Source: an uncultured Chloroflexia bacterium (GTDB taxonomy: Bacteria > Chloroflexota > Limnocylindria > Limnocylindrales > CSP1-4). From it: a stretch of DNA of 64,000 bases. The position numbers and the translations under genes were made by a program. The DNA lies in the NCBI GenBank assembly GCA_963768655.1, contig CAVYIM010000003.1:544001-608000 (forward strand), written 5' to 3'. The stretch's first letter is position 1. Each line of letters begins with the position of its first letter. The notes under the pieces are model-generated. The model saw nothing but the letters and a program-made list of their open reading frames with translations. It did no database searches and was not told where the DNA came from. Below are positions 41,171 through 59,369 of this stretch, one piece after another.

Positions 41171-41232
41171 TGGCGGAGCTGGGCCGACTGACTGCGAACC
41201 GGCCGGCCGGATCGATCCGGAGTTGTCTGGCA
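41171..41232 (+). repeat. att-like direct repeat, copy A
   Basis: TGGCGGAGCTGGGCCGACTGACTGCGAACCG...GGATCGATCC; colinear with copies B and C. Confidence 0.7.
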
Positions 41233-41463
41233 CCAATCTGCCGCGCCCGGCGCACGTGACCTGGCCGGCGTGACGAGATGGGCTTCTTGGGGGGAGGACG
41301 GCCGCCCGGCCAACGCTGCCTGCCAGCGAATAGCTGGCAGGCGCTACGATTGCCGAGCCACTCCTCTGGGTGGGGGAGAGGAGGAACGGTTCGTCGTTGG
41401 TCCGAGGGCGCGGTTCATCCGATTGATGCGCCGCTCGCTCTCTCCGGAGCTTAGGAGACTGCG

Positions 41464-42333
41464 ATGCCGTTTGGAATCGGGGAGCATTGGGTCAAGGCGC
41501 AAGGTCTGGTCGTCGCGAGCCGCGAGATCGGCAGCAAGGGCCTGGGAACGTGGCGCGAGGAGTGGGTGGTCGAGGTCCACACAGCGGAGGGGGAAACGTT
41601 CCGGTCCCCGATCAAGTGGCCGCTGGTCGAACATGATGATTTCAGTTTCATTCCGTGCTCAGAGGGCGAGACGGTCAGAATCGAGTACGACCCCAAGAAC
41701 CACAACCTCCGCTGGGACAAGTCAGATCCGGCGAGAAACATGCTCGCGAAGACGCCCTCCGACGAGCTTGCGCGGCAGAACCAGGCTTTCAACGACGCGT
41801 TGGCGGGACGGACTCCCTCTGCGTCAGGTCCGTCTGTCGCCGGGCTGGATCCGGATCTACAGGAGCTTGTGAACCTTCAGGCCAGGGCGGGCGCTCAGGC
41901 ACCGGCCGCGGACGGCAAGGTGGGCCTCGACTTCCAGTTCGATGCCAGCGGCCGGCCGGCAGCCGGTCAGGTGGAGAACGTGGTCGGCGCGGTTGCCAGC
42001 GGCCAGATGCGGACGATCAGGGGCAAGGCGGACGAGATTCTTGCGACCGGGACTCACGGCACCGCGGTGATCACCACGGCCTCGCCGCTCGGCAAGACGG
42101 TCCGCGACATCAACCCGAACGCCGATCCCTCGCGTCTCAACGACCCCATGTGGCTTTTCACACTCGAGGTCAGTCTGGCCGGCCAACAGCCATTTCCGGC
42201 GGTCTTCGGTCATCGTGTGCCGCTGGCCAAGCTGGCTTCCGTCGCTCCGGGCGTGAAGCTGGCCGTCGCGGTCAACCCGGCGAACCCCAACAACGAGGTC
42301 GCGATCGACTGGGACAAGTCGCCGCTCTCCTGA
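41464..42333 (+). CDS. Hypothetical protein (two small beta-rich domains)
   Basis: 289-aa ORF, AGGAG RBS, typical codon usage. Confidence 0.65.
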   Translation: MPFGIGEHWVKAQGLVVASREIGSKGLGTWREEWVVEVHTAEGETFRSPIKWPLVEHDDFSFIPCSEGETVRIEYDPKNHNLRWDKSDPARNMLAKTPSDELARQNQAFNDALAGRTPSASGPSVAGLDPDLQELVNLQARAGAQAPAADGKVGLDFQFDASGRPAAGQVENVVGAVASGQMRTIRGKADEILATGTHGTAVITTASPLGKTVRDINPNADPSRLNDPMWLFTLEVSLAGQQPFPAVFGHRVPLAKLASVAPGVKLAVAVNPANPNNEVAIDWDKSPLS

Positions 42334-42521
42334 AGCCCACTCGCCTCGGGCACGACGCGCACGGCTCAAGTCACGGCCGCGGTCCTCTGAGTCAGACGAA
42401 GTCCGCGCCGGGCAGGCCTCGAGGTGGATTACTCTCCGCCGACCGGTGCTAGCCTGGCTTCGGTCGAGCACGCGCGGGCTGGCGGCCGTGGACCGGAAGC
42501 GAAAGCCACGTGGGGAGATGC

Positions 42522-42983
42522 ATGGAACACACATACAAGGTCGGCAGCACAGAGCGGATCGGCAACCTGGTCGCGAAGGTGTTGGTGAGAGCGGGAGTCG
42601 GGCCGAAGCGCATGCGCCTCCTCACCATCCAGGGACGCAAGACCGGCAAGCCCCACACGATACCGCTAACTGTGGTCGAGACCGACGGGCAAAGATGGCT
42701 CGTGGCGCCCTATGGCGGCGTGGCCTGGGCCAAGAACGCCAGGGCGTCCGGCACCGCGAAACTGAGCCGGGGTCGAGTGACGGAGCAGGTGAAGGTCGAG
42801 CCGGTCGACGCCCATGAGAGCGCACCCGTGCTGAAGGCCTACATCGGCATAGAGCCGATCACAAGGTCCGCGTTCGAAGTCGGGCCGGACGCGAGCCTGG
42901 AGGAGTTCGAAGCCATCGCGCCGAACCATCCGGTCTTCCGAATCCTCCCGGTCCGGCCGGCCGACTCTGTCGCTTCGGAGTAG
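42522..42983 (+). CDS. Deazaflavin (F420)-dependent nitroreductase family protein
   Basis: LLT..GRKTGK.H..PL, WLVAPYG...WAKNARA.G, HPVFRI. Confidence 0.85.
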   Translation: MEHTYKVGSTERIGNLVAKVLVRAGVGPKRMRLLTIQGRKTGKPHTIPLTVVETDGQRWLVAPYGGVAWAKNARASGTAKLSRGRVTEQVKVEPVDAHESAPVLKAYIGIEPITRSAFEVGPDASLEEFEAIAPNHPVFRILPVRPADSVASE

Positions 42984-43058
42984 CGCCCCCGCTGCGCTGG
43001 TCGTCGACGATCCCGGCCCCCGCTGGGCCAGTTCGAGCAGCGGCGCCGGGGGCATATC

Positions 43059-43721
43059 ATGCAGGCCAACGGAAGGGGGCCATTGGTGGCAGACGCATCG
43101 GTGGGCGCATCCGATCTTCACGGGGCACCGACAAAGCCGGCGCGTCGCGGCCCGATCCCACGCGCCCGGCTGTTTCTAGGTGGCCTGGGCGCGATCGCGC
43201 TGGCGGTCGTGGTCGGGGGAAGCTGGTCGCTGTCGCACTCCAGCTCGCCGTCGGCGCAGGCCAGCCCGTCCTTCGCCGTGTACGCGGTCAATCCCGGCGC
43301 CAGATTGGCGGACATCGCCACGTGCTCCACGCCGGCTCAGACCTACGGCCAGACTCAAGCCGACTGGGGCGAGGACTACTTCATCGGGGTTTACCTCTAT
43401 GTAAACTTCACCGGCCAGCCCGACGCCCACGTCGCTGCCCTGCGGGCGCTCTTGCCGTCCAGTTGTGCGGTCTACGTCCGGATCGTCCCGATCTCGTCGG
43501 CCGCAGGCCGAGCGCTTCAAGAACGGATAGAAGGCGACATGGCGTCGCTCCAGGCCGCGGGGATACCCATCAACTCTGTCGGTTTCAACCCGATGAGCGA
43601 CAAGGTCGAAGTGGGCGTCTATCCGCTGACGCCACAGGCTCAAGCCGAGTTGGAGCGGCGATACCCAACGGGGATGCTGGACATCCACCAAGAGGCACCC
43701 GCCGTGCCGGTAGCGTCATAA
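43059..43721 (+). CDS. Hypothetical membrane-anchored protein
   Basis: One TM helix, Ser-rich linker, small extracellular domain. Confidence 0.55.
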   Translation: MQANGRGPLVADASVGASDLHGAPTKPARRGPIPRARLFLGGLGAIALAVVVGGSWSLSHSSSPSAQASPSFAVYAVNPGARLADIATCSTPAQTYGQTQADWGEDYFIGVYLYVNFTGQPDAHVAALRALLPSSCAVYVRIVPISSAAGRALQERIEGDMASLQAAGIPINSVGFNPMSDKVEVGVYPLTPQAQAELERRYPTGMLDIHQEAPAVPVAS

Positions 43722-43767
43722 GGTAGTCCGTCGATGCGGCACTGGGCACGGATCTCGCGGAAAGGAG

Positions 43768-43829
43768 TGGTGGACCTCGCCCGACTGACGGCGAACCGCC
43801 CCGGGGGATCGATCCAGCGTTCCTTGGTA
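43768..43829 (+). repeat. att-like direct repeat, copy B
   Basis: TGGTGGACCTCGCCCGACTGACGGCGAACCGCCC; 33/34 identical to copy C. Confidence 0.85.
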
Positions 43830-43891
43830 CTGGTCCGGCCGTCTCGTCCTGCGGTCTGCAGTTCGTCCGCTCGCCCTGTGGCCGGGGCACC

Positions 43892-45205
43892 CTAGCCCGA
43901 GTGTTCCGAGGTCAGGACCGACAGCGGCACGCCGCGGATCCTCTCTTGCAGCGGGTCATCACGCCCGAACTCCTCACTCCAGACGAGCCAGTCGCCACGG
44001 ACGGAAACCTCGTAGCTCTCGCTGCCTTCAGTGTCGACCTGCACCGGCGACGACCAGCCCGGTTGCCAGATGGTCAGCACATCGTGCCAGGCCTGTCCCC
44101 AGGCCTCCTGCTCCCACCAGGCCACGGCGCCCGAGCCGCATGCCATGCCGTCTATCCCCTTGGTGCCGGTGTCGCTGTCTGCGGGGCTGATCGGCTGGGC
44201 ACCTGTGTAAGGAGCGGCTCCGGTGTAGAGGCGCGGAGCCTGGAAGAAGCCTCCGGTCTCCGCATCCGCAATGGGATCGACTACCCACGCAGCCAGATCG
44301 GCCGCTGCATTGATCTGGTAGGCGGCTGCACCGATCTGCCTGGACCCACCCGAAGGCGTCCAGTGCCAGAGATGCGTGTGGCTGACGGTCCCCATGGTCG
44401 CGTCGTAGGCACCCGCCGAGTAGAGCAGACCGTCACCCACCAGGGCCATGTCGAACGGGTCCTGCGACGTCTGGATCGTGGCCTGGACCTTGCCCGAGAG
44501 GTCTCTGATCTCGATCTGCCAGCCGCGCGCGAGAGACTCGAGCATTGCGATGCGGCTCCCGTCGAATCGGATCTCGGTGACCTCGGAGTGGCCCCCGAAC
44601 CTCGGTGTCAGGCCCTGGGTCACGATCTTGACCGCGCCAGTCGCGAGATCCATGGCCTTGACGGCCCACTCCTTTGTAGGCGCGTAAACGTCTGAACCCG
44701 CGTGAGCTACTTCGAGCCAAACCAGCTGGCCGCCGGCGAGCTGGGGGTCGACTATCGCCACGCGCAGCGAGGTGCTCTCCTTCGCCTGGTAGACGATCTT
44801 GACCGACTTGGTCGTGAGATCCCCGTACCAGAGATCACCATCGTTCTCGTAGTCCGCGCTGTTGAACGCGATCTTGGAGCCGTCATTGGTGAGGTACTTG
44901 ATCTGTGGGTGGGTGAAGGGTCCGATGTCCTGGCAGGCGTCCGAGCCGAGCGGAATGGAGATGTGCGCGAAGGCGTACTGGGGCTCGGGACGCGTGCCGT
45001 GGGAGTCCCCGCAAGCTGTTCCCGAAGACGGGCTGGCGGTCGCGGCCGGCTCGGTCGACGACGGGCTCGCAGCCTGCTCCGAAGGTGATCCGACCGCGGA
45101 AGCACTGCTTGGGCTGGGGCTTGGCGTGCTGGTCGTCGTCGTGGGACTGTTCGATCCACAGCCCGAGATCACGAGGGCGATGGCGAGGGCACGCGCCCCC
45201 GCCAT
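43892..45205 (-). CDS. Lipoprotein with S/T/P linker and probable beta-propeller domain
   Basis: Lipobox ISGC; repeated Trp-containing beta motifs (LVW.E, VAWWE, LVWSE). Confidence 0.7.
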   Translation of the reverse strand: MAGARALAIALVISGCGSNSPTTTTSTPSPSPSSASAVGSPSEQAASPSSTEPAATASPSSGTACGDSHGTRPEPQYAFAHISIPLGSDACQDIGPFTHPQIKYLTNDGSKIAFNSADYENDGDLWYGDLTTKSVKIVYQAKESTSLRVAIVDPQLAGGQLVWLEVAHAGSDVYAPTKEWAVKAMDLATGAVKIVTQGLTPRFGGHSEVTEIRFDGSRIAMLESLARGWQIEIRDLSGKVQATIQTSQDPFDMALVGDGLLYSAGAYDATMGTVSHTHLWHWTPSGGSRQIGAAAYQINAAADLAAWVVDPIADAETGGFFQAPRLYTGAAPYTGAQPISPADSDTGTKGIDGMACGSGAVAWWEQEAWGQAWHDVLTIWQPGWSSPVQVDTEGSESYEVSVRGDWLVWSEEFGRDDPLQERIRGVPLSVLTSEHSG

Positions 45206-45215
45206 CACAGCTGCC

Positions 45216-46169
45216 CTAGTACCAGAGCGGCGCCTGAATGCCACTGCCAGTCGCCTCTTTGTCCATGGCCTGGTAGTAGTTGGCCTGGGGCATCACCCAG
45301 TAGCAGCCCCACGTCCCTGATCCGTACGCGGTGCTAATGCACGCGGCATTGCTGCTGCTGGTCCGCTTCGACCAAGGATCGTAGCTCGTGACCGTGCCCG
45401 CGTTGTCGTCATAGCCCGTCGCCTCAGTGGCATGCAACCCGCCAGACGTGAAGTTGCCGTAACCGCCGTTGGCCAGGCTGACCCTCACGTAGTTGGCTTC
45501 CAGGTAGCCCCAGAGGTCCTCCCGCACGAAGCTCATGAACGTCGCGGTCGATGTCGGCTTCACAGGATAGTAATAGAAGGTGTACCCGTGATTCGAGAAC
45601 TGGGCATTGATCCAGGGGAGCGCGTGGATGTCGTTCACACCGCTCGCGGTCCCTTGAAGAGCGGCGAAGATCGCGTCTTGGCCCTTCCTGACAGTCCCTT
45701 TTCCCATCGTCTCATATGACGTGCCCAGGTCGAACACCGCGAACGACTGTACGGCAGCCACAACGCAGTAGATCGTTGTCTGCTCGTGCATGCCCGGGAA
45801 GAAGCTTGTGATGTCAAAACTGCAAGGGAACCCGTCAACGCAAGTGGCGTACATCGGCTGCACTGCACCTGTGCTCAGGGCCGCCCCAACACCAGTCTTG
45901 ATGCCTCGGCTCACGGGCTGGGCCGTGATGGTACCAGCGTCGATCTCAGCTGTAATGGCGTCCTTCAGCTGCTTGTAGGCGGCGGGAACACCGTCGTCTA
46001 CGGCCGGCCCCCCGGACCCGATCGGAATGGCAATTCCGGTGCCGGTACCGGTGTAGGCGGGCGCAACCGCGTTCGGATTCGCCGCGTAGGCGACGGAAGA
46101 CGACGCGCAACCCAATGCCAGAGCAGCCAACACTGCTGCTAGCGCGCGTCGGCCCACGAGACATACCAT
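45216..46169 (-). CDS. Secreted protein with putative C39-like (papain-fold) peptidase domain
   Basis: Signal peptide ending AYA; EQTTIYC..A and H....GYD.......YDPW motifs. Confidence 0.6.
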   Translation of the reverse strand: MVCLVGRRALAAVLAALALGCASSSVAYAANPNAVAPAYTGTGTGIAIPIGSGGPAVDDGVPAAYKQLKDAITAEIDAGTITAQPVSRGIKTGVGAALSTGAVQPMYATCVDGFPCSFDITSFFPGMHEQTTIYCVVAAVQSFAVFDLGTSYETMGKGTVRKGQDAIFAALQGTASGVNDIHALPWINAQFSNHGYTFYYYPVKPTSTATFMSFVREDLWGYLEANYVRVSLANGGYGNFTSGGLHATEATGYDDNAGTVTSYDPWSKRTSSSNAACISTAYGSGTWGCYWVMPQANYYQAMDKEATGSGIQAPLWY

Positions 46170-46269
46170 GGAACCCCCACTCGGACAGCCCCGGGTCCCT
46201 CGCCCGGGCTCGATGTCTGTCCACTAGGACACTACATGCTAGGCATCACCCAGTCAACACGAACGTTGC

Positions 46270-46334
46270 TGGTGGACCTCGCGCGACTGACGGCGAACCG
46301 CCCGTGCGGAAAGATCCGATGCTCGCTAGCGATG
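46270..46334 (+). repeat. att-like direct repeat, copy C
   Basis: TGGTGGACCTCGCGCGACTGACGGCGAACCGCCC...GATCCGATGCTCGCT. Confidence 0.85.
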
Positions 46335-46544
46335 GCCCGGAAGTCCGGCCGGGTGGGTCGTGGCCGGCTTGAGGCCGACTGCCCGGCGTGAAGTCGCGTC
46401 GGGACTTCGTAGTTCATAGCCGATCGTTGTGATACGCCGCTGTGCCTACATTGGGGCGAACAGTCCCGGCCGGCTACTCGCCATCAGAACACGGATAGGT
46501 AGCGGCTCCTGAGCGGCAAGGCAGAGGACCACCCTGAAGTAAGG

Positions 46545-46571
46545 TGCAACGGCGGCCCGGGGTCAGGCGTT
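46545..46571 (+). promoter_or_regulatory. Putative ECF promoter TGCAAC-N17-CGTT
   Basis: AAC/CGT motif 17 nt upstream of the ECF sigma start. Confidence 0.5.
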
Positions 46572-46588
46572 AGACCTGATAGAAGGGA

Positions 46589-47086
46589 GTGGCGGTGGAA
46601 TCGGTCGCGGACGCGAGCCGAAGCGAAGCAGAGGGTTTCGACGCGGCCGTCCGCCGGCACGAGAGCTGGCTGATCGGGCGGCTCGCGCTCGTCGTCGGCG
46701 ACCGCGAGGAGGCCCGCGATCTCGCTCAGCAGACGTTCCTCAGAGCCGCCGAGCGCTGGCCCATCGGCACGGACGGCGAGGTCGCGCGCTGGCTCTCTGT
46801 GGTAGGCGTGCGGCTCGCGATCGACGAGCGCAGGCGGCGCCGGCGCTGGGGCTTCCTGCCTATCGAAGAGGCGGATTCGACCTGGGCTCTTGCCGCCGAC
46901 CCCGACGTGTGGCGGGCCCTATCGCGGCTCGACCGTCGTACCCGAGCGGCGCTGGTGCTCACGGTGATCGAGGGCTACTCGCAGGATGAAGTCGCGGAGG
47001 CTCTCGGCGTACCCCGCGGGACGCTGGCCAGCTGGCTGTCTCGGGCGCGGAGTCGCCTTCGCGCGGCACTAGAGGAGCGTGAGTAG
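46589..47086 (+). CDS. ECF-type sigma-70 family sigma factor
   Basis: ARDLAQQTFLRA, WL..V..RLAID..RR, EVAEALGVPRGT..S.LSRAR. Confidence 0.88.
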   Translation: MAVESVADASRSEAEGFDAAVRRHESWLIGRLALVVGDREEARDLAQQTFLRAAERWPIGTDGEVARWLSVVGVRLAIDERRRRRRWGFLPIEEADSTWALAADPDVWRALSRLDRRTRAALVLTVIEGYSQDEVAEALGVPRGTLASWLSRARSRLRAALEERE

Positions 47087-47088
47087 CG

Positions 47089-47727
47089 ATGGACGATCTC
47101 GACGCTCGGATCCGGACCCGCCTCGTCGCCCTGGCGGACGCAGCCACGCGAGAACCGGTCACTCCCGCGGCCGCGACTCTCGGGCAGCGTCCTCGGGTGC
47201 GGAGTGCCGCGCCTGTCGGAGTGCTGGCTCTCGGTGCGGTCCTTCTTGCTGCGGTCGTGATCGGAGTCCGCCTGGGCCGGCAGCCCGGCGTCGCGCCCTC
47301 TCCGGCCGCTCAGTCACCGTCTGCGATCGTGGCGAGCCCCTCTACGAGCCTCGCTTCGGTCGTGCCGACGGTCACCCCATCGCCCTCGCCCACCATTGCT
47401 TCGGCCGCACCCACCGTGACCCCGTCGCCGCTGCCGTCGGGCGGGATCTCCGAGGAGCGCGCCATCGAGCTTGCCAGGCAGCAGGGCTTCTATACCTTCG
47501 TCAGCGCCGTCGCTGGTACGTTCGAACAGAACAACATAGGGATCGGGCCGGGCGCAGGGATCGCGCAGGATCGAATGGTCTGGGCCGTCACACTTTCGGG
47601 CACTGCCGCTCCCTGCCCGCCCAACGGAGCGACGTGTGGGCCGCCCAGGGCCGGCACTGTGATTTACTACTTCGACTACTACACGGGCGCCTTCCTAGCC
47701 AGCTACGGCTCATTCCCTGCGCCATAG
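47089..47727 (+). CDS. Putative anti-sigma-like membrane protein
   Basis: Follows sigma gene; MDDLDARIR N-terminus, TM helix, S/P/T linker, small Cys-pair domain. Confidence 0.7.
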   Translation: MDDLDARIRTRLVALADAATREPVTPAAATLGQRPRVRSAAPVGVLALGAVLLAAVVIGVRLGRQPGVAPSPAAQSPSAIVASPSTSLASVVPTVTPSPSPTIASAAPTVTPSPLPSGGISEERAIELARQQGFYTFVSAVAGTFEQNNIGIGPGAGIAQDRMVWAVTLSGTAAPCPPNGATCGPPRAGTVIYYFDYYTGAFLASYGSFPAP

Positions 47728-47752
47728 GCTCAGCGCGTTCCGCTGCGCCGGA

Positions 47753-47806
47753 GCCCGACTGACGGCGAACCGCCTGGGTGGGATGGTGCGGTGCTCGCTG
47801 GCAATG
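47753..47806 (+). repeat. att-like direct repeat, copy D (5'-truncated)
   Basis: GCCCGACTGACGGCGAACCGCC...GTGCTCGCTGGCAATG. Confidence 0.75.
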
Positions 47807-48133
47807 CCGAGCGACTGGCGTCGGAGCGGGGCGTCGCATTTGGCGACGGTATCGAGGCCGATCGCCTGGCCTTTGGCTGGGCCGCCTCGAAGTGCGAGTG
47901 GCCTCAGATAAGCGGCGGCGCCTGGCCAAGCATCGCCGTGAGCTCCAACGTTGGGGACGTGCCCGACTCTCCGGCGACCAGCGCCGAGCACAGGTGTTGC
48001 GGCCCTGGACGCTGCGCGGCGTGGTGCGCCGGGGCCGAAGACGCGAGCCGTGAGGCGGTTCCGCGAGGCTTGGAGGCTCGGTACGTCACAATTGTCGATG
48101 GGGCGAATCTCGCGCGATCTCGGAGGAGACAAG

Positions 48134-48901
48134 GTGGGCGATCGGCTGACATTCCTCGGCCATTCGACCGTCCTGGTCGACCTCGATGGCGCCCGAGTGT
48201 TGACGGATCCGCTGCTGGGCCACCTGGCGATAGCCATCCGGCGCCAGGTGCCTGCCGTGCCTCCTGACACCCTCCGTGACCTTTCGGCGGTCTTCATCAG
48301 CCACGGTCACCTGGATCATCTGGATCTCGAATCCCTTCGGGCTCTTCCGGGCCAACCGGCGCTCATCGTCCCGGTCGGCCTGGGGCGCGTCGTGGCAAAG
48401 GTCGCGCGCGGCGCGGTCCGCGAGGTGCGGGCCGGCGACCGGCTGCAGGTCGGCGATCTGACGCTGGAGGCCGTCCACGCAGAGCACAGCCGCCGCCGCT
48501 CGCTCTTCACGGCCGCCGAGGGTCCTCTGGGCATCCTCATCGTCGGGTCGACGCGCGTCTACTTCGCCGGCGACACCGGCCTCTTCCCGGGAATGCGGCA
48601 GCTGGCCGGGCGGGTCGACGTGGCGCTCCTGCCGGTGAGCGGTTGGGGTCCCACGCTCGGGCGCGGCCATCTGGACCCGCAGACGGCGGCCGAGGCGGCC
48701 GTACGGATCGGCCCCGCGATCGCCACTCCCATCCACTGGGGCACGCTTTATCCACTCGGCCTCCGGCGCCTTGCGAGCCGCCAGTTCGAGGGACCGGGCG
48801 AGGCTTTCCGCCAGGCGGTCGCCGCGCGCGACGCTCGAATTGACGTGCGCGTTCTGCAGCCGGGGCAATCGATGGCCCTCGACGGGAGGGCCGGGCGATG
48901 A
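48134..48901 (+). CDS. MBL-fold metallo-hydrolase (UlaG-like)
   Basis: FLGHST, LTDP, SHGHLDHLD, YFAGDT, PIHWGT. Confidence 0.88.
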   Translation: MGDRLTFLGHSTVLVDLDGARVLTDPLLGHLAIAIRRQVPAVPPDTLRDLSAVFISHGHLDHLDLESLRALPGQPALIVPVGLGRVVAKVARGAVREVRAGDRLQVGDLTLEAVHAEHSRRRSLFTAAEGPLGILIVGSTRVYFAGDTGLFPGMRQLAGRVDVALLPVSGWGPTLGRGHLDPQTAAEAAVRIGPAIATPIHWGTLYPLGLRRLASRQFEGPGEAFRQAVAARDARIDVRVLQPGQSMALDGRAGR

Positions 48902-50985: not shown

Positions 50986-51054
50986 CGCCGCGTCCGACCG
51001 GACCGCGTCGCGAACAGTCCGGCCACCAGAACGGAGGGTCGCCGGGACTCAGGT

Positions 51055-51756: not shown

Positions 51757-51828
51757 TCAGCGACGACTGACACGCAACCCGCCGAACAGGAAGAGCACGA
51801 TGAGGATGACGACCAGGAGTTCCAACAC
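51757..51828 (-). CDS. 23-aa single-TM microprotein MLELLVVILIVLFLFGGLRVSRR
   Basis: GTG start after GAAAGAAGG RBS; one hydrophobic helix; shared upstream box. Confidence 0.55.
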   Translation of the reverse strand: MLELLVVILIVLFLFGGLRVSRR

Positions 51829-51874
51829 AGGACACCTTCTTTCATGATCAGCCTGCTCGTCTTCACCCGCGGGT

Positions 51875-51892
51875 GCGAGGATGAAAACCCCC
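51875..51892 (-). promoter_or_regulatory. Conserved box GGGGGTTTTCATCCTCGC (copy 1)
   Basis: Identical to 53450-53467. Confidence 0.65.
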
Positions 51893-52026
51893 GCCGTAAC
51901 CCACCTGGCGTTCTCTGGGCGGCTGGCAGAGCGAGCCGTCCATCCTCCCGGCGACCTGAGGCTGGCCGAGGATCCGCCGATAGTCGTAGCTCGACTCCCG
52001 GGTGCATCGATTCCAGCCGGGCCTGC

Positions 52027-52042
52027 GGGTCTTCATCCTCAC
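52027..52042 (+). promoter_or_regulatory. Conserved box GGGTCTTCATCCTCAC (plus-strand copy)
   Basis: Variant of the box, oriented toward the small plus-strand gene. Confidence 0.55.
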
Positions 52043-52136
52043 AATCGATCGTCAGGCAGGGTAAGACTCGAAGCGGACCTCCTTAGACTCCGCCCGTTCC
52101 GGGCGAGCAGGCCAGGTCCCGATCGAGGAGACTCCC

Positions 52137-52304
52137 TTGGCTCGCAACAAGATGTTCAGCAACCCCAAGTCGGTGTTGGTCATCGTGGCCTGTATCTGCT
52201 TCGCGATCGCCGTGCTCACGACGGCTGGGATCCTCTCGATCGGCAGCAAGATCGACTGGACCAACCTGGGCCTGTTCTTCGGCTTCCTCTCCTTCATCGT
52301 CTGA
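52137..52304 (+). CDS. Small two-TM membrane protein (55 aa)
   Basis: GAGGAG RBS, TTG start (alternative ATG 52152); MFSNPKSVLVIVACICFAIAVL...LGLFFGFLSFIV. Confidence 0.6.
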   Translation: MARNKMFSNPKSVLVIVACICFAIAVLTTAGILSIGSKIDWTNLGLFFGFLSFIV

Positions 52305-52572
52305 CGCGTCGGGCGCGCCCGCCAAACTGGAGCGCCCGGTTCACGGTCGTGGAACGCCACCTGGGCGGTTAGCCCTGCTGGCTACCCCGACGAGCCCCCA
52401 CGAGACGCGCGGCTCGAGCATCCTGCGCCCCGCTGCGCCGTACGGGACCTCGGCGCTGTGCACAGCCTGACGGACCACGTTGGCATGAAAGAGCAGGACC
52501 GGCCCCTCGTCCGGGGACCGATCCTGCTGGATGAGATCAGAGCGAGGCAAGAGCCCCGCGAGCGTTCTCGGC

Positions 52573-52857
52573 TCAGCGCCAGCCGAACGAGCGACGCCGG
52601 CCGCCGAGGCTTCCGACGACGAAGACCACGATCAGCGCACCGACCACCGCGACGATGATGCTCGTGGTGTTGACGCCGGTCACGTTGGCGATCTTGAGGA
52701 CATCTGCGGCAATCCATCCGCCGACGATGGCGCCCACGATACCGAGCACGACCATCATCACCAGGCTCTCACGGGACCCGGAAATGAGGCTGGCGAGGAA
52801 GCCGGCGATCGCGCCGACGACGAGCCAGGTGAGGAGAGTCATATTGGGAATATCCAC
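52573..52857 (-). CDS. GlsB/YeaQ/YmgE family stress-response membrane protein
   Basis: WLVVGAIAGFLA, LGIVGAIVGGW, SIIVAVVGALIV. Confidence 0.88.
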   Translation of the reverse strand: MDIPNMTLLTWLVVGAIAGFLASLISGSRESLVMMVVLGIVGAIVGGWIAADVLKIANVTGVNTTSIIVAVVGALIVVFVVGSLGGRRRSFGWR

Positions 52858-52926
52858 GGGATTCCTTCTTTCTTGTTGAGCGCATGCCGGAAGCCGGGCG
52901 ACGGGGCTGCGCGAGTAGCGGCCGGA

Positions 52927-53340
52927 TTATGCGAGGGCGGGCTCGTGCCGGAAGATCGCGAGGCCCCAGAGAACGATCAGTTCGACGATCGTCCAGCCGA
53001 CAAAGGCGACGACTGCGGCGACATCGAGCACGGAGCCGCCGGAGGAAGCGGCGCTGATGCGCAGGATCCCCTGGAACGGCGCGGCGACGAGCCCGCCAAC
53101 GTTGTTGATGATCGCAACGAGCAGGTTCCCTGTGCGTGCGTCGAGCAGCAGCAAGACGATCCGCAGGCCGAGCACGATCTGGATCAGGCCGAAGACGAGG
53201 ACGACGATGCGGCGGGTTGTCTCATTGTTGCTGGGCCGATAGTCGAACTGGCGCCTGGTGGTGGTCCGGTTGCGAAGGCCACCGGACTCGGTGGGCGTCG
53301 GCGCGTCGGTGGTGACGCTCCGCTGTTCCTGAACTGTCAC
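52927..53340 (-). CDS. YggT-like membrane protein
   Basis: LGLRIVL.LL.A...N, LVAPFQGI, D.AAVVA..GW. Confidence 0.7.
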   Translation of the reverse strand: MTVQEQRSVTTDAPTPTESGGLRNRTTTRRQFDYRPSNNETTRRIVVLVFGLIQIVLGLRIVLLLLDARTGNLLVAIINNVGGLVAAPFQGILRISAASSGGSVLDVAAVVAFVGWTIVELIVLWGLAIFRHEPALA

Positions 53341-53416
53341 GGTGGTCTTCTTCCCGGCGACGGACGATGGACCTGCACCCGGCCATCAAGCCGGTGGGGC
53401 CTTCGATCCGTTGTCA

Positions 53417-53890
53417 CTATTCGATAGTGGACCTGCCGCCGGGCGTGTCGCGAGGATGAAAACCCCCTGCTGAACAGGCGTCGGAGTGGGCGCCGCCGCT
53501 ACGGCAGAGCCGGGTGCGGGGCCTGGTGAGACCGGCGCGTCGGGACACGATCGCGAAGCCGAGGATCGACGCGGGTGCAAAGCCGGCCAGCGTGACCAGG
53601 CGCGGCGCCCTCGCCAGACGGAGGCCAGCACCCAGACCGATCGAGGCGACCGCCAGGAGTCGCAGCGCCGAATCGGGCATCGTTTGCAGGCCGGTTACCG
53701 TGCTCCCCGCGCCGGATTGCACGCGGTCGAAGGCCCCCGGAAGCCGATCGCCGACCTGACCCGCGCGATGGCGCGCCGCGCCGGCGATTTCCGGCACGTG
53801 CCCGATAGCCTTGGCCACCCCGGTGCGTGCCTGATCGATCGCAGCTCGCGCGCCGGCGAACGACGCCTGTCCGTTGTCCTGGGTTTCCAT
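53417..53890 (-). CDS. Hypothetical protein (amphipathic N-terminus, C-terminal TM segment)
   Basis: GGAG RBS before METQD; 3' end runs into the next promoter so the true end is uncertain. Confidence 0.5.
   Translation of the reverse strand: METQDNGQASFAGARAAIDQARTGVAKAIGHVPEIAGAARHRAGQVGDRLPGAFDRVQSGAGSTVTGLQTMPDSALRLLAVASIGLGAGLRLARAPRLVTLAGFAPASILGFAIVSRRAGLTRPRTRLCRSGGAHSDACSAGGFHPRDTPGGRSTIE
53450..53467 (-). promoter_or_regulatory. Conserved box GGGGGTTTTCATCCTCGC (copy 2)
   Basis: Identical to 51875-51892; CACTAT lies 20 nt downstream. Confidence 0.65.
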
Positions 53891-54013
53891 CGTGATCTCC
53901 GTCGTAGTCATGTTGAGGTGCTGGGTCGTGTCCACGGCCCAAGGCCTGGCGGGTTGGACGCCGGACGACGTACTCGCCCTCATGTAGCAACGTGGGCGTC
54001 CGCAGACAGTCTT

Positions 54014-54029
54014 GCGAGGATGGAAACCC
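54014..54029 (-). promoter_or_regulatory. Conserved box GGGTTTCCATCCTCGC (copy 3)
   Basis: One mismatch to copies 1 and 2; lies in the divergent intergenic region before the kinase. Confidence 0.6.
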
Positions 54030-54120
54030 TGCCCTGAGGACGTCGGTTGTGCCGGTCTCTGTTGGGCCGGTCGGGACCTGGGTCCACTTCACTCGATCGC
54101 CAACCTAGAATGTGAACAAC

Positions 54121-57100
54121 ATGGCGCGACCGGCGATCCCAGCGGAATCTCAGCTCGTCGTGATCGGATCCTCGGCGGGCGGAATCGAGGCGCTCTCGCG
54201 CGTGGTCGCGAGCCTGCCGGCCGACTTCCCGGCGCCGATCGTGATCGCGCAGCACCTCGACCCCCGCCGCCCCAGCCATCTGCACGAGATCCTGGCCCGC
54301 CACGCAACTCTGCCCGTCCGAGTGGTCGAGGAGCGCGAAGCCCTGGAGGACGGCGTGATCTTCGTCGTTCCTTCGAACCGGATCGTGGAGATCAGCCACG
54401 GCGACCTCCGGCTTCGCGCAGCCAAAGCCGGTGCCGTCGCACCCTCCATCGATGTGCTGTTCGAGAGCGCGGCCAGTGTCTTCGGCCCCGGGCTCATCGC
54501 CGTGATCCTGACCGGCAGCGGGTCCGACGGATCCTCGGGAGCCTGGCACGTCAAGAAGGCCGGCGGAGCGGTCGTCATCGAGAACCCCGCGACGGCCATG
54601 TTTCCCTCGATGCCCAGCTCGATACCCCCGTCCCTGGTCGACGCGACAGCTGATCTCGACTCGATTGGATCGATCCTGTGCGATCTGCTGGCGGCCGGCA
54701 ATGCTCCGGCGGAGGGGCCCGACTACGACGAGCTTGGCAAGCTCCTCGAGCGGATCCACGCGCGAAGCGGCATCGATTTCCGCAGCTACAAGCCGGCTAC
54801 GATCCTGCGGCGTTTGCGCGGCCGGATGAACGCCACTTCTCGCCCAACGCTCGCCGGGTACGCGGCGTTGCTGGAATCCGATCCCGAGGAGTTCGCCAGG
54901 CTCCTCAACAGCCTCCTGATCAAGGTCACGGAGTTCTTCCGGGACCCGAAACTCTTCGAGTACCTGGGCGCCCATGTCCTCCCCGAGTTGATCGCGGAGG
55001 CCCGGCGCGAACAGCGGGAACTCCGCATCTGGTCGGCCGGGTGCTCCACGGGCGAAGAGGCCTACTCCCTGGCCGTCGTCGTTGCCGAAGCCCTCGGAGA
55101 CGAGCTCCCGTGGCCGGATGTCCGGATCTTCGCGACTGACATCGACCGTGAGGCGATCGCCTTCGCCCGCCGGGGGATCTATCCGCCGGCAGCCCTCAAG
55201 GGCCTGCCCGCAGGCGCTCGAGACCGCTACTTCGTGAAATCGGACGGGGGATACGAGGTCGCCAAACGGTTGCGCACCCTGATGGTGTTCGGCGAGCACG
55301 ACCTCGGCGAGCGAGGGCCCTTCCCGCGAATCGATCTGCTGCTCTGCCGGAACGTGCTGATCTACTTCGCCGCGCCGATGCAGCGGATCGCCCTCGAGAC
55401 GTTCGCGTTCTCGTTGCGGCCAGGCGGTCGGCTGGCCCTCGGCACGTCCGAGAGCGTCATGGCCCTGCCGGAGCCGTTCGAAGAGGAGCACGCGCGACTG
55501 CGGGTCTATCGGCGGCGGCCCGGGAGCTACGCGATCCCACCGATGCGACCGGTGGCGCTCCACCCGCGTCGGAGCCAGGAATCTCAGCTCGATCAGGCCA
55601 TCCGAGTCACGCACCGCGACGTCCAGCGCGTGGCGGAATCGTCGTCGTCGGCGGATAGCCTGCTGCTCAACCTGACGGTGGGCATCGTCGTCGTCGACCC
55701 GCGCTACTACATCGTGCGGATCAACTCCGCGGCCCGCCAGATGCTCGGGATCCACGGCGCGGCCTACGACCAGGACTTCGTCCATCTCGCCGAGGTTCTT
55801 CCGCCCAGTGCGATCCGAGCTGCCATCGACTCCGCGCTGGCGGGCAAGAAGACCACGTCCGTGTTCGAGGTGGAGCCCACGGATGCCGCCAGCGAGACAG
55901 CCCATTTCGTGGAGGCCACCGTCCGCCCTTACCGGGTCGAGGACCGCGCCATCGAAGGCGTCGTCGTCGAGCTGACGGACGTAAGCAGGCTCGAGCAGGA
56001 GCGTCGAGCCGGCGTCCGGACACGGGAGCGACTCGAGAAGGCGGTCGCCACGAACGGCCGGCTCCTTCGAGCGAACGAGGAGCTGACCGCCCTGGTCGCC
56101 GAGCTCAGGTCGGCGAACGAAGCGATGCTCCTGGCCAGCGAGGACGCGCAGGCCACTCGCGAGGAAGTGGAAACCGTCAACGAGGAGTTCCAGGCCACCA
56201 ACGAGGAGCTCGAAACCCTCAACGAGGAGCTGACTGCCAGCGTCGAGGAGCTGCGGGTCGCGAACGAGGATCTCGCGACTCGCACCGAAGAGCTCAGCGA
56301 GCAGGCGGTCGTGCTGGAGCAGCAGCGGTTGAGCATCCAGGAGGAGCACGATCGTCTGCGATCGATCCTGGCGAGCCTGGGCGACGCGGTCGTCGCGGTC
56401 GACTACGAGGGCCGCATTATGACGACAAACGACGCCTACGATCGGCTCTTTGGCAACGCCGAGATCGAGCCCGAGGATGCCGCCGGCCTCCCGATTCCAC
56501 CGGCAGACTGGCCTCTGAGACGGGCTGCCCGAGGCGAACGGTTCCGTATGGAATTCGCGGTCGCCCGGCCCGGGCAGAGTAGACGCTGGTTCGAGGCCGT
56601 GGCGGAGCCGCTCACCGCCGGTGACCGAACCTGGGGCGGCGTGCTGACGATCCGGGACCTTTCCGAACGCACGATGCGGCTCAGCCTGGAGCGGCTGATG
56701 GCCGCTGCGGGTCACGAGCTCAAGACCCCGGTGGCCGCCCTGCATGGATACCTCCAGCTCGTCGAAAGGAACCTCGGCCCGGAGAGCTCCACGCAGGCCC
56801 GGACTTATGCGGCCCGGTCGCTGGTGCAGACCAGGCAGATCGGGGAACTCATCGAGCGTCTCTTCGACGTCAGCCTCATCCAGGGCGGCAACCTCGAGCT
56901 CATCACCGCGCCGATCGATCTCATTGCGGTCGTGCGCGATGCAGTCGACGTTGCCGGGACATTGCCGAAGGCGCCGCCGATCCGGGTCTCGGCGACCGCT
57001 GGACCGATCCTCGTCCAGGCGGATGCTGTTCGCCTGGAGCAGGTCTTCGTCAATCTCCTCTCGAACGCCGTCGAGCACGCGGGCAGCTCGCCGACCATCG

Positions 57101-57396
57101 GCGTGTCCGTGAGCCGATCCGGCACGACGGCCGTCGTCGAGGTCCGCGACCACGGTCCGGGGATAGCCAGCGAGGTTCTGCCGCAGCTGTTCCAGCCCTA
57201 CGCGCGGCTGGGGCACAAGCCGTCTGGCGGGCTGGGTCTTGGACTCTACCTGGCACGCGAGATCGTGATCGCGCATGGCGGAACGATCGAAGCCGAATCG
57301 ACCCTCGGCGAGGGAACTACCCTCACCGTTCGGCTCCCGCTCCGGCGGCGGAGGTCTCGCCGCGAGGCCGCTCCGGCGGCGGAGGCAGGATTGTGA
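54121..57396 (+). CDS. CheB-CheR fusion with PAS domains, coiled coil and histidine kinase
   Basis: CheB GSSAGG/QH/LTGSGSDG; CheR WSAGCSTGEE/CRNVLIYF; EELETLNEEL coiled coil; H-box GHELKTP, N/G1/G2 boxes. Confidence 0.93.
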   Translation: MARPAIPAESQLVVIGSSAGGIEALSRVVASLPADFPAPIVIAQHLDPRRPSHLHEILARHATLPVRVVEEREALEDGVIFVVPSNRIVEISHGDLRLRAAKAGAVAPSIDVLFESAASVFGPGLIAVILTGSGSDGSSGAWHVKKAGGAVVIENPATAMFPSMPSSIPPSLVDATADLDSIGSILCDLLAAGNAPAEGPDYDELGKLLERIHARSGIDFRSYKPATILRRLRGRMNATSRPTLAGYAALLESDPEEFARLLNSLLIKVTEFFRDPKLFEYLGAHVLPELIAEARREQRELRIWSAGCSTGEEAYSLAVVVAEALGDELPWPDVRIFATDIDREAIAFARRGIYPPAALKGLPAGARDRYFVKSDGGYEVAKRLRTLMVFGEHDLGERGPFPRIDLLLCRNVLIYFAAPMQRIALETFAFSLRPGGRLALGTSESVMALPEPFEEEHARLRVYRRRPGSYAIPPMRPVALHPRRSQESQLDQAIRVTHRDVQRVAESSSSADSLLLNLTVGIVVVDPRYYIVRINSAARQMLGIHGAAYDQDFVHLAEVLPPSAIRAAIDSALAGKKTTSVFEVEPTDAASETAHFVEATVRPYRVEDRAIEGVVVELTDVSRLEQERRAGVRTRERLEKAVATNGRLLRANEELTALVAELRSANEAMLLASEDAQATREEVETVNEEFQATNEELETLNEELTASVEELRVANEDLATRTEELSEQAVVLEQQRLSIQEEHDRLRSILASLGDAVVAVDYEGRIMTTNDAYDRLFGNAEIEPEDAAGLPIPPADWPLRRAARGERFRMEFAVARPGQSRRWFEAVAEPLTAGDRTWGGVLTIRDLSERTMRLSLERLMAAAGHELKTPVAALHGYLQLVERNLGPESSTQARTYAARSLVQTRQIGELIERLFDVSLIQGGNLELITAPIDLIAVVRDAVDVAGTLPKAPPIRVSATAGPILVQADAVRLEQVFVNLLSNAVEHAGSSPTIGVSVSRSGTTAVVEVRDHGPGIASEVLPQLFQPYARLGHKPSGGLGLGLYLAREIVIAHGGTIEAESTLGEGTTLTVRLPLRRRRSRREAAPAAEAGL

Positions 57397-58001
57397 TCCG
57401 CTTGGCGATAGTCGAGGATCATCCTGCAATCGCCGAGGGGCTCACGGCGCTGCTGCGGGGCGAGCCCGACGTGACCGTCGTCGGGACGGCCCCGGACGAT
57501 GTGGCGGCCGACCATCTCATCGCTGCCCAATCCCCCGACGTCGTCTTGTGCGACATCCGTCTGGCCGGGACCGTGGACGGGCTGGAGGTCCTCGCCCGCC
57601 ACACGCCGGGCCCGGCATTCATCATGCTGAGCGCGTACTCGTATCCAAGCTATTACGTCGCCGCGGTCGAGCACGGAGCGAAGGGCTACCTCTCGAAGAT
57701 GGCGACCATCGAGCAAATCCTCAGAGCAGTGCGCACGGTCGCTGCTGGAGGCACCGCATTCCCGGACGGCGTCCGCCGAGCCGTCCGCACGGCGCTTCGT
57801 TCGCCGACTCCGCGCGAGGCCCAGATCCTGGCGCTCGTGGCCGAGGGCCTCGGTAACGCGGAGATCGCCGAACGTCTGTCGCTCCGGCTCAAGACTGTCG
57901 AGAGCCAGCTCCGGCGCATGTTCGATCGCTACGACGTGACGAACCGGACCTCGCTGGTGCGCGTCGCCCAACGGCAGGGCTGGATCGAAGGCGATCGCTA
58001 G
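57393..58001 (+). CDS. NarL/LuxR family response regulator
   Basis: VEDH, DVVLCDI, GYLSK; TPRE.QIL.LVAEG..NAEIA..L.....TV; GTGA overlap with kinase. Confidence 0.92.
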   Translation: MIRLAIVEDHPAIAEGLTALLRGEPDVTVVGTAPDDVAADHLIAAQSPDVVLCDIRLAGTVDGLEVLARHTPGPAFIMLSAYSYPSYYVAAVEHGAKGYLSKMATIEQILRAVRTVAAGGTAFPDGVRRAVRTALRSPTPREAQILALVAEGLGNAEIAERLSLRLKTVESQLRRMFDRYDVTNRTSLVRVAQRQGWIEGDR

Positions 58002-58025
58002 TCCGTGCCGGGGACTGTCAGGTCG

Positions 58026-58070
58026 GTGGTAGACCTGCGGCTTGAGGCACCACGAAGGCCCGCGAACCGG
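58026..58070 (+). repeat. Degenerate att-like repeat, copy E
   Basis: GTGGTAGACCTG...GCGAACCGG with a longer internal segment. Confidence 0.35.
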
Positions 58071-58125
58071 ACTAACCCAGCCTCAGCCGGTTGCGGCGCC
58101 GTTTCGTAGATGGTATATATAACCC

Positions 58126-58716
58126 ATGACAGCTAACCCGCCGGATAACCGGTACCGCCGACGTTTCCTGGTCGAATTCACCCCCGCCGAGTCCGATCTT
58201 GCGGAGCGGCTCGGGGCTGTTCACGGCTCCAAGCGCCGGGCGATCGTGACCGGGTTGGGATTGCTGGAGAGCGGCGAAGTAGAGGCGCTCCGCGGCCAAG
58301 TCGCCGCGCTGGAGAAGGAGCGTGATGCCGCCAGGGCGGCCGCCTCCAGGGCCGGTGAGAGCCTCAAGGCCGCGAAGGAGCGGGCTGCAAACGCGAAGGA
58401 AGCCGCCGCCGAGCTGCGCGCCGAGCGGGCTGCCCACAACAAGACGAAGGCGGAACTCGCCCAAGCTCGCCGCGAAATGGCATCAACTCTAGAGGCGCTC
58501 ACAGCTGCACAATCTGAGCTGCAGCGCTACGCGTCGAGCCTTCCGACCATGGCCTACTGCCGCGAATGCGACAAGTTCGTGCCACTGACCGAATGGAGCG
58601 AACGGGCCGCCGAGGGTGGCGTCGTGCACGTCTACCACAACAAGCACGAATATCGACCCAGGGGCTCGATAACGAAGTACGCCACAGTCATGTTCATGAG
58701 AGGAGGGACCAAGTGA
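58126..58716 (+). CDS. Hypothetical coiled-coil protein with C-terminal CxxC/His cluster
   Basis: 196-aa ORF; long Ala/Glu/Lys heptads; YCRECDK...HVYHNKH; AT-rich -10 just upstream. Confidence 0.6.
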   Translation: MTANPPDNRYRRRFLVEFTPAESDLAERLGAVHGSKRRAIVTGLGLLESGEVEALRGQVAALEKERDAARAAASRAGESLKAAKERAANAKEAAAELRAERAAHNKTKAELAQARREMASTLEALTAAQSELQRYASSLPTMAYCRECDKFVPLTEWSERAAEGGVVHVYHNKHEYRPRGSITKYATVMFMRGGTK

Positions 58717-58914
58717 GCGAACAACTTGCCGGAATGCCGGCCTCGATCCTCGGGCCGGAGCCGAGTCTGCTGACCATCATCGCCCTGCTCTTGCTCTGGA
58801 TCTCGGGCGCGTTCGAGCGGGCCCTTGCGGAGGCCTTCCTGCCCGCAGCTCCAGCCCGACCGCCTTCGATCCACCTGGCAAGGCCGCGCCTGGTACCCAT
58901 GTCCGCGGAGAGGG

Positions 58915-59293
58915 CTGCCATCGGCAGCCAGACGCCCGTCGAGCCTGTCAGCGCCGACGACGTGGCCTTGATCAGCTGGTCGCTCACCGAGGCCCTCGAC
59001 GAGGTCCTCAAGGCCATCCCGACGCCGCGGGCCAAGGCGCTGTTAAGACTGCTAATAGAGGAGATCCGTCCTTATTCAGGCGGGCCTGGTCGCAATGGCT
59101 CGTCCCGTATCGGCTGCGGGCGTAGCAGGTGTAGTAGGCGTTAGCGCTTACCGCCGCGACCGCGAGCAGCTGCGCCGATCATCCGTGGTCGTCTCGCCGA
59201 TGGACATCCGGCCCACCTACCGAGTGCCGGCGATGACGGCCCCGGCAGAACCGCTGCCGGCCTCCGCCGACGCGGTTTGCCGTGCGGAGGCTA
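58915..59293 (+). pseudogene. Putative C-terminal remnant of a large serine recombinase, interrupted by about 115 bp, reading into the antisense tRNA
   Basis: PTPRAKALLRLLIEEIR ... VVSPMDIRPTYRVPA ... MVEMRGLEPLT, a pattern I recognise from serine integrase C-termini. Confidence 0.6.
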
Positions 59294-59369
59294 TGGTGGA
59301 GATGAGGGGACTCGAACCCCTGACCCCCGCGATGCGAACGCGGTGCTCTCCCAGCTGAGCTACATCCCC
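59294..59369 (-). tRNA. tRNA-Ala(CGC)
   Basis: GGGGATGTAGCTCAGCTGGGAGAGCACCGCGTTCGCATCGCGGGGGTCAGGGGTTCGAGTCCCCTCATCTCCACCA, 76 nt. Confidence 0.97.

Follow-up and report, generated by a model that had tools for sequence, protein, structure and literature searches.

The 64,000-nt window analysed here, a stretch from the genome of an uncultured Chloroflexota bacterium (its own assembly is termed G000, and all coordinates follow the window numbering), contains a direct repeat of ~75 nt that recurs within a variable island bordered by a tRNA-Ala(CGC) gene. Comparison with related genomes suggests, at a probability that we put at about 0.85, that the repeat is an attL-type junction (B joined to P'), which would have been left when elements that encode a large serine recombinase (LSR) became integrated at the 3' tip of the tRNA-Ala(CGC) gene. 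A preliminary description of the window had taken the repeats for serine-recombinase att sites that are anchored at this tRNA and mark the seams of a mosaic island, and on these points our results agree with it. In the proposed scheme, attP would lie inside the 3' end of the LSR gene, where the last conserved codons form the P arm, with GGTTCGC 20 nt before the core TGGTGG, and where the P' arm, with GCGAACC 17 nt after the core, is followed by about 40 nt that would encode the C-terminal tail of the excised form. The predicted attB consists of the CCA, the discriminator and the first acceptor bases of the tRNA, the antisense of which reads as the TGGTGG crossover, with the T-loop serving as B' outer motif 5 bp closer to the centre. 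Integration would join the LSR 3' end to the tRNA, leaving the tRNA undisrupted and turning the tail of the enzyme into antisense tRNA, and would deposit the core, the P' arm and the tail-coding DNA at the opposite end of the element. The window array would then be a decayed record of several such integrations.

Four genuine copies of the repeat, which we refer to as scars, are present in the window, all on the + strand, and 4 of 4 are intergenic when genes are called from codon-position GC content and Pfam. The 31-nt core supplied by the preliminary description is found exactly at 43768 and with 1 mismatch at 46270 (chance expectation 0.00, 100 shuffles), and repeat searches recover a 54-nt family at 41182, 43779, 46281 and 47753 (n=4, 67-100% identity to the reference) as well as a 76-nt family at 41171, 43768 and 46270 (n=3). 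The copies, the tRNA gene and a fifth copy proposed earlier are located as follows:

41167..41259, + strand: putative attL-type scar 1, core TGGCGG at 41171-41176, P' outer motif GCGAACC at 41194-41200; relic LSR tail frame open until the stop at 41257-41259
43764..43895, + strand: putative attL-type scar 2, core TGGTGG at 43768-43773, GCGAACC at 43791-43797, tail-frame stop at 43893-43895
46266..46391, + strand: putative attL-type scar 3, core TGGTGG at 46270-46275, GCGAACC at 46293-46299, tail-frame stop at 46389-46391
47750..47911, + strand: scar 4, 5'-truncated and coreless, GCGAACC at 47765-47771
58026..58090, + strand: proposed fifth copy, unsupported as a member of the repeat family
59294-59369, - strand: tRNA-Ala(CGC), the 3' end of which (59294-59299) reads TGGTGG on the + strand, as the crossover core

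Scar 4 is without the first ~12 nt of the repeat, the TGGTGG core included, and adjoins the end of a putative anti-sigma open reading frame (ORF; 47089-47727). Of the five sites listed in the preliminary description, those at 41171, 43768, 46270 and 47753 are intergenic and share one orientation, as stated there, whereas the fifth, at 58026, does not match a profile of 35 copies at E<=1. By eye, this stretch contains a core-like GGTGGTAGACC and a GCGAACC, at a spacing that is ~12 nt too long. Two other genomes (G001 and contig C72 of G005) have a homologue of the coiled-coil gene that follows, but this stretch is not conserved upstream of it, and an internal attL in front of that gene was rejected.

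The repeat is tied to the recombinase by locus L047 on G005:C72, where there is no tRNA and the LSR frame passes straight into the repeat (...AVRRAEA-MVVLACQTANRSAGTVRC...). Integrated LSR copies read ...AEA-MVEMRGLEPLTPAMRTRCSPS and then stop, their DNA being identical to that of L047 up to GGCTATGGTGG and diverging after it. From this continuity, the repeat would represent the core and P' side of an attP located inside the LSR gene, and its frame would be that of the enzyme's C-terminal tail in the non-integrated configuration. The preliminary description had already compared the VDLARLTANR encoded by the repeat with the VEMRGLEP of an ORF fused to the tRNA; the two are indeed in the same frame, and recombinase genes that end in the repeat, the absence of which it had named as evidence to the contrary, do exist. 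No terminal overlap of >=16 nt is present in G005:C72, so that a free element is indistinguishable from a tandem array at this locus.

An intact enzyme of this kind is found in G001, a genome of the same genus, where a 543-aa LSR (L046:1501-3132, - strand) with Resolvase, Recombinase and Zn_ribbon_recom domains (Pfam; match to a PHROG 'integrase' at E 1e-112) ends antisense within the orthologous tRNA-Ala(CGC). Its neighbours include a homologue of the coiled-coil gene of the window, an OLD-family nuclease and an AbiJ-like gene. Four fragments of the enzyme remain in the window, alongside the coiled-coil gene (residues refer to the G001 enzyme):

58126..58716, + strand: coiled-coil gene, located directly upstream of the LSR gene in G001 and G005:C72 (75-79% DNA identity)
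58869..59078, + strand: LSR fragment, residues 421-490, 64% identity
59068..59139, - strand: LSR fragment, inverted, residues 321-344, 100% identity
59188..59358, + strand: LSR C-terminal stump, residues 488-544 (57 aa), 96% identity
59564..59791, + strand: LSR fragment, displaced to the 5' side of the tRNA, residues 343-418, 78% identity

The 96% identity over residues 488-544 bears out the earlier suggestion that the ORF fused to the tRNA is a recombinase stump. The stump holds the P arm (GGTTTGC, 59274-59280), and its antisense reading through the tRNA ends with ...AEAMVEMRGLEPLTPAMRTRCSPS and a stop. Across 58869-59791, the recombinase gene is scrambled, with one piece inverted and one piece 5' of the tRNA, and this combination of inversion and displacement implies that the gene was not lost by a simple deletion alone. 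G000 (3.37 Mb, 9 contigs) yielded no intact member of the family, only two LSRs on contig C7 that are 25% identical. Given the scrambled resident gene and the lack of an intact relative in this 88.6%-complete assembly, the window array is probably immobile now.

Counting the G000 fragments, 11 of 51 genomes in the genus have LSR homologues, and intact elements are present in G001, G023 and G005. Of 14 scanned loci, 9 (one of them a stump) have an LSR 3' end that an antisense tRNA overlaps or adjoins, the stump in the window being a tenth, and the tRNAs involved are Ala(CGC), Ala(GGC), Val(CAC), Leu(TAG) and Ile(TAT). A copy of the repeat lies 6-12 kb upstream of the LSR, on the same strand and contig, in five loci. 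The wider family extends to Actinomycetota, Chloroflexota and Dormibacterota metagenome-assembled genomes (MAGs), with 567 of 600 candidate stretches encoding a relative; among the best 80 family loci, 39 have an antisense tRNA that overlaps the end of the ORF, and ~12 more ORFs read through a nearby antisense tRNA.

The half-sites flanking the core are arranged as inverted repeats. GGTT(C/T)GC starts 20 nt before the core in 11 of 11 listed LSR 3' ends (P arm), and GCGAACC starts 17 nt after the core in the repeat (P' arm). The start of the 7-mer GGTTCGC and that of its inverted repeat are 43 nt apart, and the two delimit a site of 50 bp, the length of about 50 bp expected of an attP, with its centre between the last two letters of the core (TGGTG/G), and the P/P' inverted repeat extends over 12-13 bp in both LSR clades. 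On the tRNA side, the T-loop of tRNA-Ala(CGC), which reads TCGAACC on the + strand and corresponds to the B' outer motif, begins 12 nt past the core, so that the offset is 38 nt. In the best 80 loci, the offset is 38 wherever a tRNA or tRNA-like sequence follows (8 of 8 tRNA-linked loci with a dyad, of 10 shown), and 43 in 6 of the 25 tRNA-less loci, including L066, which is located at the same place as L047. For LI integrase and other LSRs, the available part of PMC3783163 describes an outer (zinc-ribbon) motif that is shifted by 5 bp between attP and attB, and the offsets of 43 and 38 nt conform to this rule. The shift also accounts for the '5-nt insertion' relative to the tRNA that had been noted in the preliminary description. 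The repeat is nevertheless not tRNA-derived, contrary to what had been proposed there: what it shares with the tRNA is limited to the 6-nt core, and the similarity in CGAACC is really that of the recombinase outer binding motif, placed 5 bp further out than its T-loop copy. A correspondingly shorter attB is evident on the tRNA side; on the other side, a GGTTGT-like motif is positioned 15 nt before the core in 4 of 5 listed hairpin arms (discussed below), and is not found in the window's own scars. The half-sites covary with the LSR clade (GCGGTTCGCCGT/ACGGCGAACCGC versus GGTTCGCATACTG/CAGTATGCGAACC) which, together with the covariation of core and tRNA, supports their function.

This second covariation emerges from the distribution of the repeat. 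With a DNA profile and a six-frame peptide profile, 12 copies are detected in G000, in three clusters located in the window (n=4), on contig C5 (n=6, 39.8-52.9 kb) and on contig C9 (n=2, 171.1 and 174.2 kb). All three clusters (3 of 3) lie downstream of the 3' end of a tRNA, antisense to it, the tRNAs being Ala(CGC), Leu(TAG) and Ile(TAT). Copies are present in 12 of 24 genomes of the same genus, and for another family of the order only weak matches were obtained, in 3 of 16 genomes. Nine further clusters were located, 5 of which are followed by an antisense tRNA 1.3-13 kb downstream:

G015:C1 and G002:C98 clusters: downstream antisense tRNA-Ile(TAT)
G006:C23 and G020:C130 clusters: downstream antisense tRNA-Ala(CGC)
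G012:C6 cluster: downstream antisense tRNA-Val(CAC)

One cluster (G009:C33) has no tRNA within 20 kb, and for the remaining 3 of the 9 the contig ends 1.7-4.7 kb past the repeat. A TGGTAG core is present in five copies, of which 4 pair with a downstream antisense tRNA-Ile(TAT) whose end likewise reads TGGTAG (this count leaves out the tRNA of the fifth copy), and two of the 4 pairs, those in G015:C1 and G002:C98, turned up after the prediction had been made. TGGTGG and TGGCGG cores pair with Ala, Leu and Val tRNAs. The pairing of core and tRNA is what is expected if attP and attB share their central dinucleotide.

Being short, intergenic and present in several copies per genome, the repeat resembles repetitive extragenic palindromic (REP) sequences, miniature inverted-repeat transposable elements (MITEs) or a structured RNA with no tie to recombination, an identity that we regard as extremely improbable. 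Rather than being scattered irrespective of context and of tRNAs, a pattern that the preliminary description had named as contrary evidence, the copies in the 3.37 Mb of G000 have a single orientation and every cluster is linked to a tRNA. Terminal inverted repeats are absent, Rfam gives no match at the repeats (30000-64000, E<=1), and the consensus of 32 copies folds weakly, at -0.6 kcal/mol on the + strand and -4.1 kcal/mol on the - strand. Three further identities were rejected. For a tRNA fragment, no tRNA was found within 1.5 kb of 20 of 20 repeat loci, and pairing of the T-arm, judged by eye, is lost between subtypes. For a promoter of an extracytoplasmic function (ECF) sigma factor, the spacing from GAAC to GTC is, by eye, 2-3 nt too short, and the conserved block far exceeds the length of a promoter. 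For the stump of a longer gene, profile searches of protein collections gave one longer protein (P0001, 217 aa), which resembles a run-on ORF and not a recombinase, and two short ones; such scarcity of longer proteins with the motif is expected if only integrated forms normally get assembled.

The copies have a common reading frame, (V)(D/E/V)(L/E/Q)..AN(R/Q)PxGx(V/I)R(C/R)SLA, followed by an unconserved tail of 0-35 codons and a stop. Stand-alone small genes or leader peptides of about 30-45 aa, with the conserved N-terminus (V)DLARLTANRPxGxVR, would account for this frame, for its weak codon-like pattern (ratio of non-synonymous to synonymous polymorphism, pN/pS, of 0.69 in frame versus 1.1-1.2 in the other + strand frames) and for the purine-rich tract that precedes NTG-GTG in many copies. 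Yet the frame continues the LSR ORF at the attP-type junction, several copies are without a usable start codon (CTG-GTA, or none), and in some copies a terminator-like hairpin ends 10-15 nt upstream, too close for a promoter to fit in between. No variation is seen at the third codon positions of GCG-AAC-C, a sign of constraint at the DNA level, and the purine tract is found too in P arms and in the flanks of empty sites. In addition, word-seeded profile searches of 5.8 billion proteins returned just 3 called proteins with the motif, and the genes downstream are sometimes convergent. Such small genes therefore appear very unlikely. Within codons 13-25, the in-frame pN/pS is 0.64-0.68 versus 0.94-1.33 in the other two frames, a difference that we count towards the reading of the repeat as an att site with an LSR tail.

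The DNA between the tRNA and a conserved left flank is highly variable, as would be expected for islands anchored at a tRNA. Six genomes, G000 and five of the same genus, have both flanks in common and enclose islands of 2.1-25.3 kb:

38808..59293, no strand assigned: variable island of the window, between the conserved left flank and the tRNA 3' end (20.5 kb, 4 repeat copies in G000)
G003: island of 2.1 kb, 0 repeat copies
G017: island of 3.3 kb, 0 repeat copies
G016: island of 5.6 kb, 0 repeat copies
G015: island of 11.3 kb, 3 repeat copies
G001: island of 25.3 kb, 2 repeat copies

Homology restarts within 8 nt of the 3' end of tRNA-Ala(CGC), and exactly there in 4 of 5 comparisons. The six islands have almost nothing in common except the repeat, which is confined to the three largest. 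In Logan contigs from three runs of three studies, 43770-46249/50 is kept as one piece at 93-97% identity, and the DNA to its left is unlike the window, with the change falling at 43770-43772 and hence inside the core; in one contig, the order is the piece 43770-46250, its arm, another scar and unlike DNA. The flanks thus change at the repeats, as the preliminary description had proposed to test, and the mismatch of breakpoints and repeats that it had named as contrary evidence is not borne out. None of the sequencing runs held more than 0.11 of the sampled words, and uncovered parts are uninformative. A joint from 42984 to 43771 in X2 is weak, its shorter side comprising only 27 letters. A joint from 46250 to 43768 in X3, considered as a circle, reflects the next scar, and the Logan contig data contain no junction indicative of excision or of a circle.

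The gene modules between the scars had been labelled in the preliminary description, and Pfam agrees for the F420H2-dependent quinone reductase-like protein, the ECF sigma factor, the metallo-beta-lactamase (MBL), the phosphodiesterase, the CheB-CheR-PAS-histidine kinase and the LuxR-type response regulator, and also finds TetR and MFS among the window ORFs. For the module labelled 'C39-like peptidase + lipoprotein', Pfam, NCBIfam and PHROGs gave no support. A GC-rich stem-loop of ~70 nt (42985-43054; about -45 kcal/mol, 80 nt folded) separates the F420H2 reductase-like gene from the next ORF. Copies with 79-92% identity are found at many loci in four relatives, G000 having a further one (C6:106651), and the element seems to form a small repeat family of its own.

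Several observations weigh against a straightforward history of repeated insertion of LSR elements. The largest module (47951-58001; MBL, phosphodiesterase, stress-gene, CheB-CheR-kinase and response-regulator genes) has orthologues elsewhere in G001, G017 and G003, with an identity of 73-84% that is like that of the flanks, at what are ordinary chromosomal loci; its neighbours in G001:C4 map to several G000 contigs. This stretch seems to be core DNA relocated into the island rather than the mobile module proposed earlier, so that not all DNA between scars is imported cargo. Moreover, simple stacking by attP x attR recombination would be expected to provide each inner scar with an LSR gene and a P arm on its left, and neither is present: GGTTCGC at the P position scores at most 5/7 to the left of scars (26 of 35 copies with a recognisable core), and no LSR relic is detected left of scars 1-4 (tblastn, E<=1e-3). 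In the available part of PMC3783163, standard LSR chemistry recombines attP with neither attL nor attR, and repeat insertion at an occupied site would accordingly need an extra step. Some copies on contig C5 probably arose by duplication and not by integration, since three scars of this cluster are near-identical and alternate with paralogous Kelch genes. Finally, the whole case is a comparison of MAGs. Repeated integration had also been proposed in the preliminary description, and of this proposal the identity of the att sites stands, while the left arms of the scars are B-type and not the P-type of simple tandem integration. Repeated integration at this site may be part of the history, as may mobilisation in trans.

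The cluster on C5 is notable for its gene content. Nine tandem Kelch-repeat genes occupy one strand of G000:C5:39800-54416 (L007 3790-18416), with six scars interleaved on the opposite strand, and the array ends at tRNA-Leu(TAG). The near-identical scars among Kelch paralogues suggest that duplication across scars expanded the gene family. P-P' junctions, which are missing from the window, do occur at L047 and at L105 and L137. The latter two are family recombinases that lie 16 kb apart on one complete chromosome of a Solirubrobacterales MAG, from another phylum; each LSR runs into an attP-type junction (43-nt offset), not into a tRNA, and the pair would form a tandem array whose integrases are intact.

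How the array grew may be indicated by the left arms of scars in other genomes. At least 7 scars in four genomes, as well as the tRNA flank of G015, are preceded by a common arm of ~45 nt composed of a hairpin and a T-rich stretch, which is near-identical before several scars and contains a GGTTGT-like motif 15 nt before the core, the B-type spacing, while the DNA further left and the cargo differ. G015 thereby looks like three attL-type scars followed by a junction of hairpin arm and tRNA that resembles an unoccupied attB, an arrangement that goes beyond standard LSR reactions and again complicates an account by successive LSR insertions. Tentatively, and with low confidence, growth of the array may have proceeded either by decay or imprecise loss of the recombinase end, recreating the target, or by insertion of recombinase-less cassettes in trans.

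The second route would be integron-like and is compatible with the att-site explanation: units without a recombinase, each made up of a scar, cargo and a right-end arm, would be mobilised in trans by an LSR, with the hairpin arm P-type in the circle and B-type beside the tRNA, so that each insertion regenerates attB and the array grows at the tRNA. The shared arm at at least 7 junctions of four genomes and at the G015 tRNA flank is what such units would produce, and the arms of L015 and L034 carry both GGTTCTG ~21 nt and GGTTGTG 15 nt before the core. The order in G015 is scar, cargo, hairpin and tRNA, and G001 is organised likewise, with an LSR element inserted after the hairpin; the module 43770-46250 also travels as a unit while its neighbours change. 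Several points weigh against such cassettes. A hairpin arm is missing from all four scars of the window, and the spacing of the outer GGTTC motif ranges from 21 to 24 nt. As far as the available part of PMC3783163 reports, recombination of attL-type sites with attB is not a reaction of published LSRs, and no circular form is seen in the contig data. We consider cassettes of this kind possible but unlikely. Somewhat less likely still is a more specific version, in which the scars are working sites of a serine-integrase cassette system whose units are inserted at the tRNA and re-mobilised in trans by a visiting integrase, the target being regenerated, and in which exchange of the C-terminal tail acts as a switch between the free and the inserted state. 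Returning to the interpretation of the scars as attL-type junctions, the architecture of the site, its linkage to the LSR and to tRNAs and the variability of the island can be read from the compared sequences, and the order and number of integrations, the regeneration of attB-like sites and a function of the tail swap may be suggested from them.

The integron analogy had been drawn in the preliminary description and is apt insofar as ordered modules are separated by recombination sites alongside a fixed anchor. In contrast to integrons, however, the modules here are multi-gene and lie in either orientation. No IntI-type tyrosine recombinase was found among the 24 window ORFs scanned by Pfam, and no search was made for attI or a Pc promoter. 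The scars also differ from attC sites in that their sequence is conserved and their secondary structure is not, as is apparent from the weak consensus fold.

The system resembles the LSRs of A118/LI, Bxb1 and phiC31 in its domains, in the inverted half-sites of the 50-bp attP and in the outer motif that lies 5 bp closer in the target, but it differs from them in that the target is a tRNA 3' tip and attP lies within the coding sequence of the integrase itself. The integrase IntP/IntX of myxophage Mx8 was reportedly described by Tojo et al. in 1996. With Mx8 IntP/IntX and SSV-type integrases, both of which extend across attP according to the available part of PMC4383910 (Islander, 2014), the present family shares a gene that spans attP, a tRNA target and an enzyme that is altered on integration. 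These are tyrosine recombinases, however, and SSV-type integration splits the gene, whereas here only residues past the last conserved LSR segment are swapped for antisense-tRNA residues. According to the same part of PMC4383910, no targeting of tRNA genes by serine integrases was known, and the available part of a review of archaeal tyrosine recombinases (PMC8371274) places self-disrupting integrases only in archaea. Prochlorococcus tycheposons are likewise associated with tRNA islands built by successive integrations; in the portion of bioRxiv 10.1101/2020.12.28.424599 available to us, 910 of 937 elements have tyrosine recombinases as integrases and 27 of 937 an LSR, and the remnants are partial tRNAs. 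Such partial tRNA copies are absent here: only 6 nt are common with the tRNA, and the remnant is the P' arm of the integrase together with tail-coding DNA. No description of this LSR family was found in the literature searched, supplements being outside its scope. The system is of a known kind, namely tRNA-anchored integrative elements that use LSR site-specific recombination, and what this window adds is the array of scars, the 5-bp geometry and the puzzle of the hairpin arms.

Two further features of the element family concern genes that accompany the recombinase. The product of 58126-58716 has no family match beyond an SMC-like coiled coil (Pfam, NCBIfam, PHROGs) and, from its position, may be a candidate accessory or directionality factor. 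Just upstream of the gene, at 58100-58130, GTAGATGGTATATATAACC is conserved (also in G001 and G005:C72) and is AT-rich and promoter-like in a genome of 69% G+C. At L039 2443-6952 (G001:C2), an AbiJ-like gene and an OLD-family ATPase/TOPRIM nuclease belong to an intact element, so that the cargo of the LSR element family includes genes for anti-phage defence.

Taken at the level of sequence, these results give an account of how a variable gene island was assembled in an uncultured Chloroflexota lineage of soil and peat. The family breaks two textbook habits, in that a serine integrase is found at tRNA genes and attP lies inside a bacterial integrase gene. The predicted 50-bp attP and 40-bp attB, the latter centred on the tRNA 3' end, are directly testable, and the conserved tRNA tip as a target makes these enzymes candidate DNA-insertion tools for organisms without the usual landing sites. 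The integration-dependent swap of the enzyme's tail may, in turn, provide a built-in sensor of the integration state.

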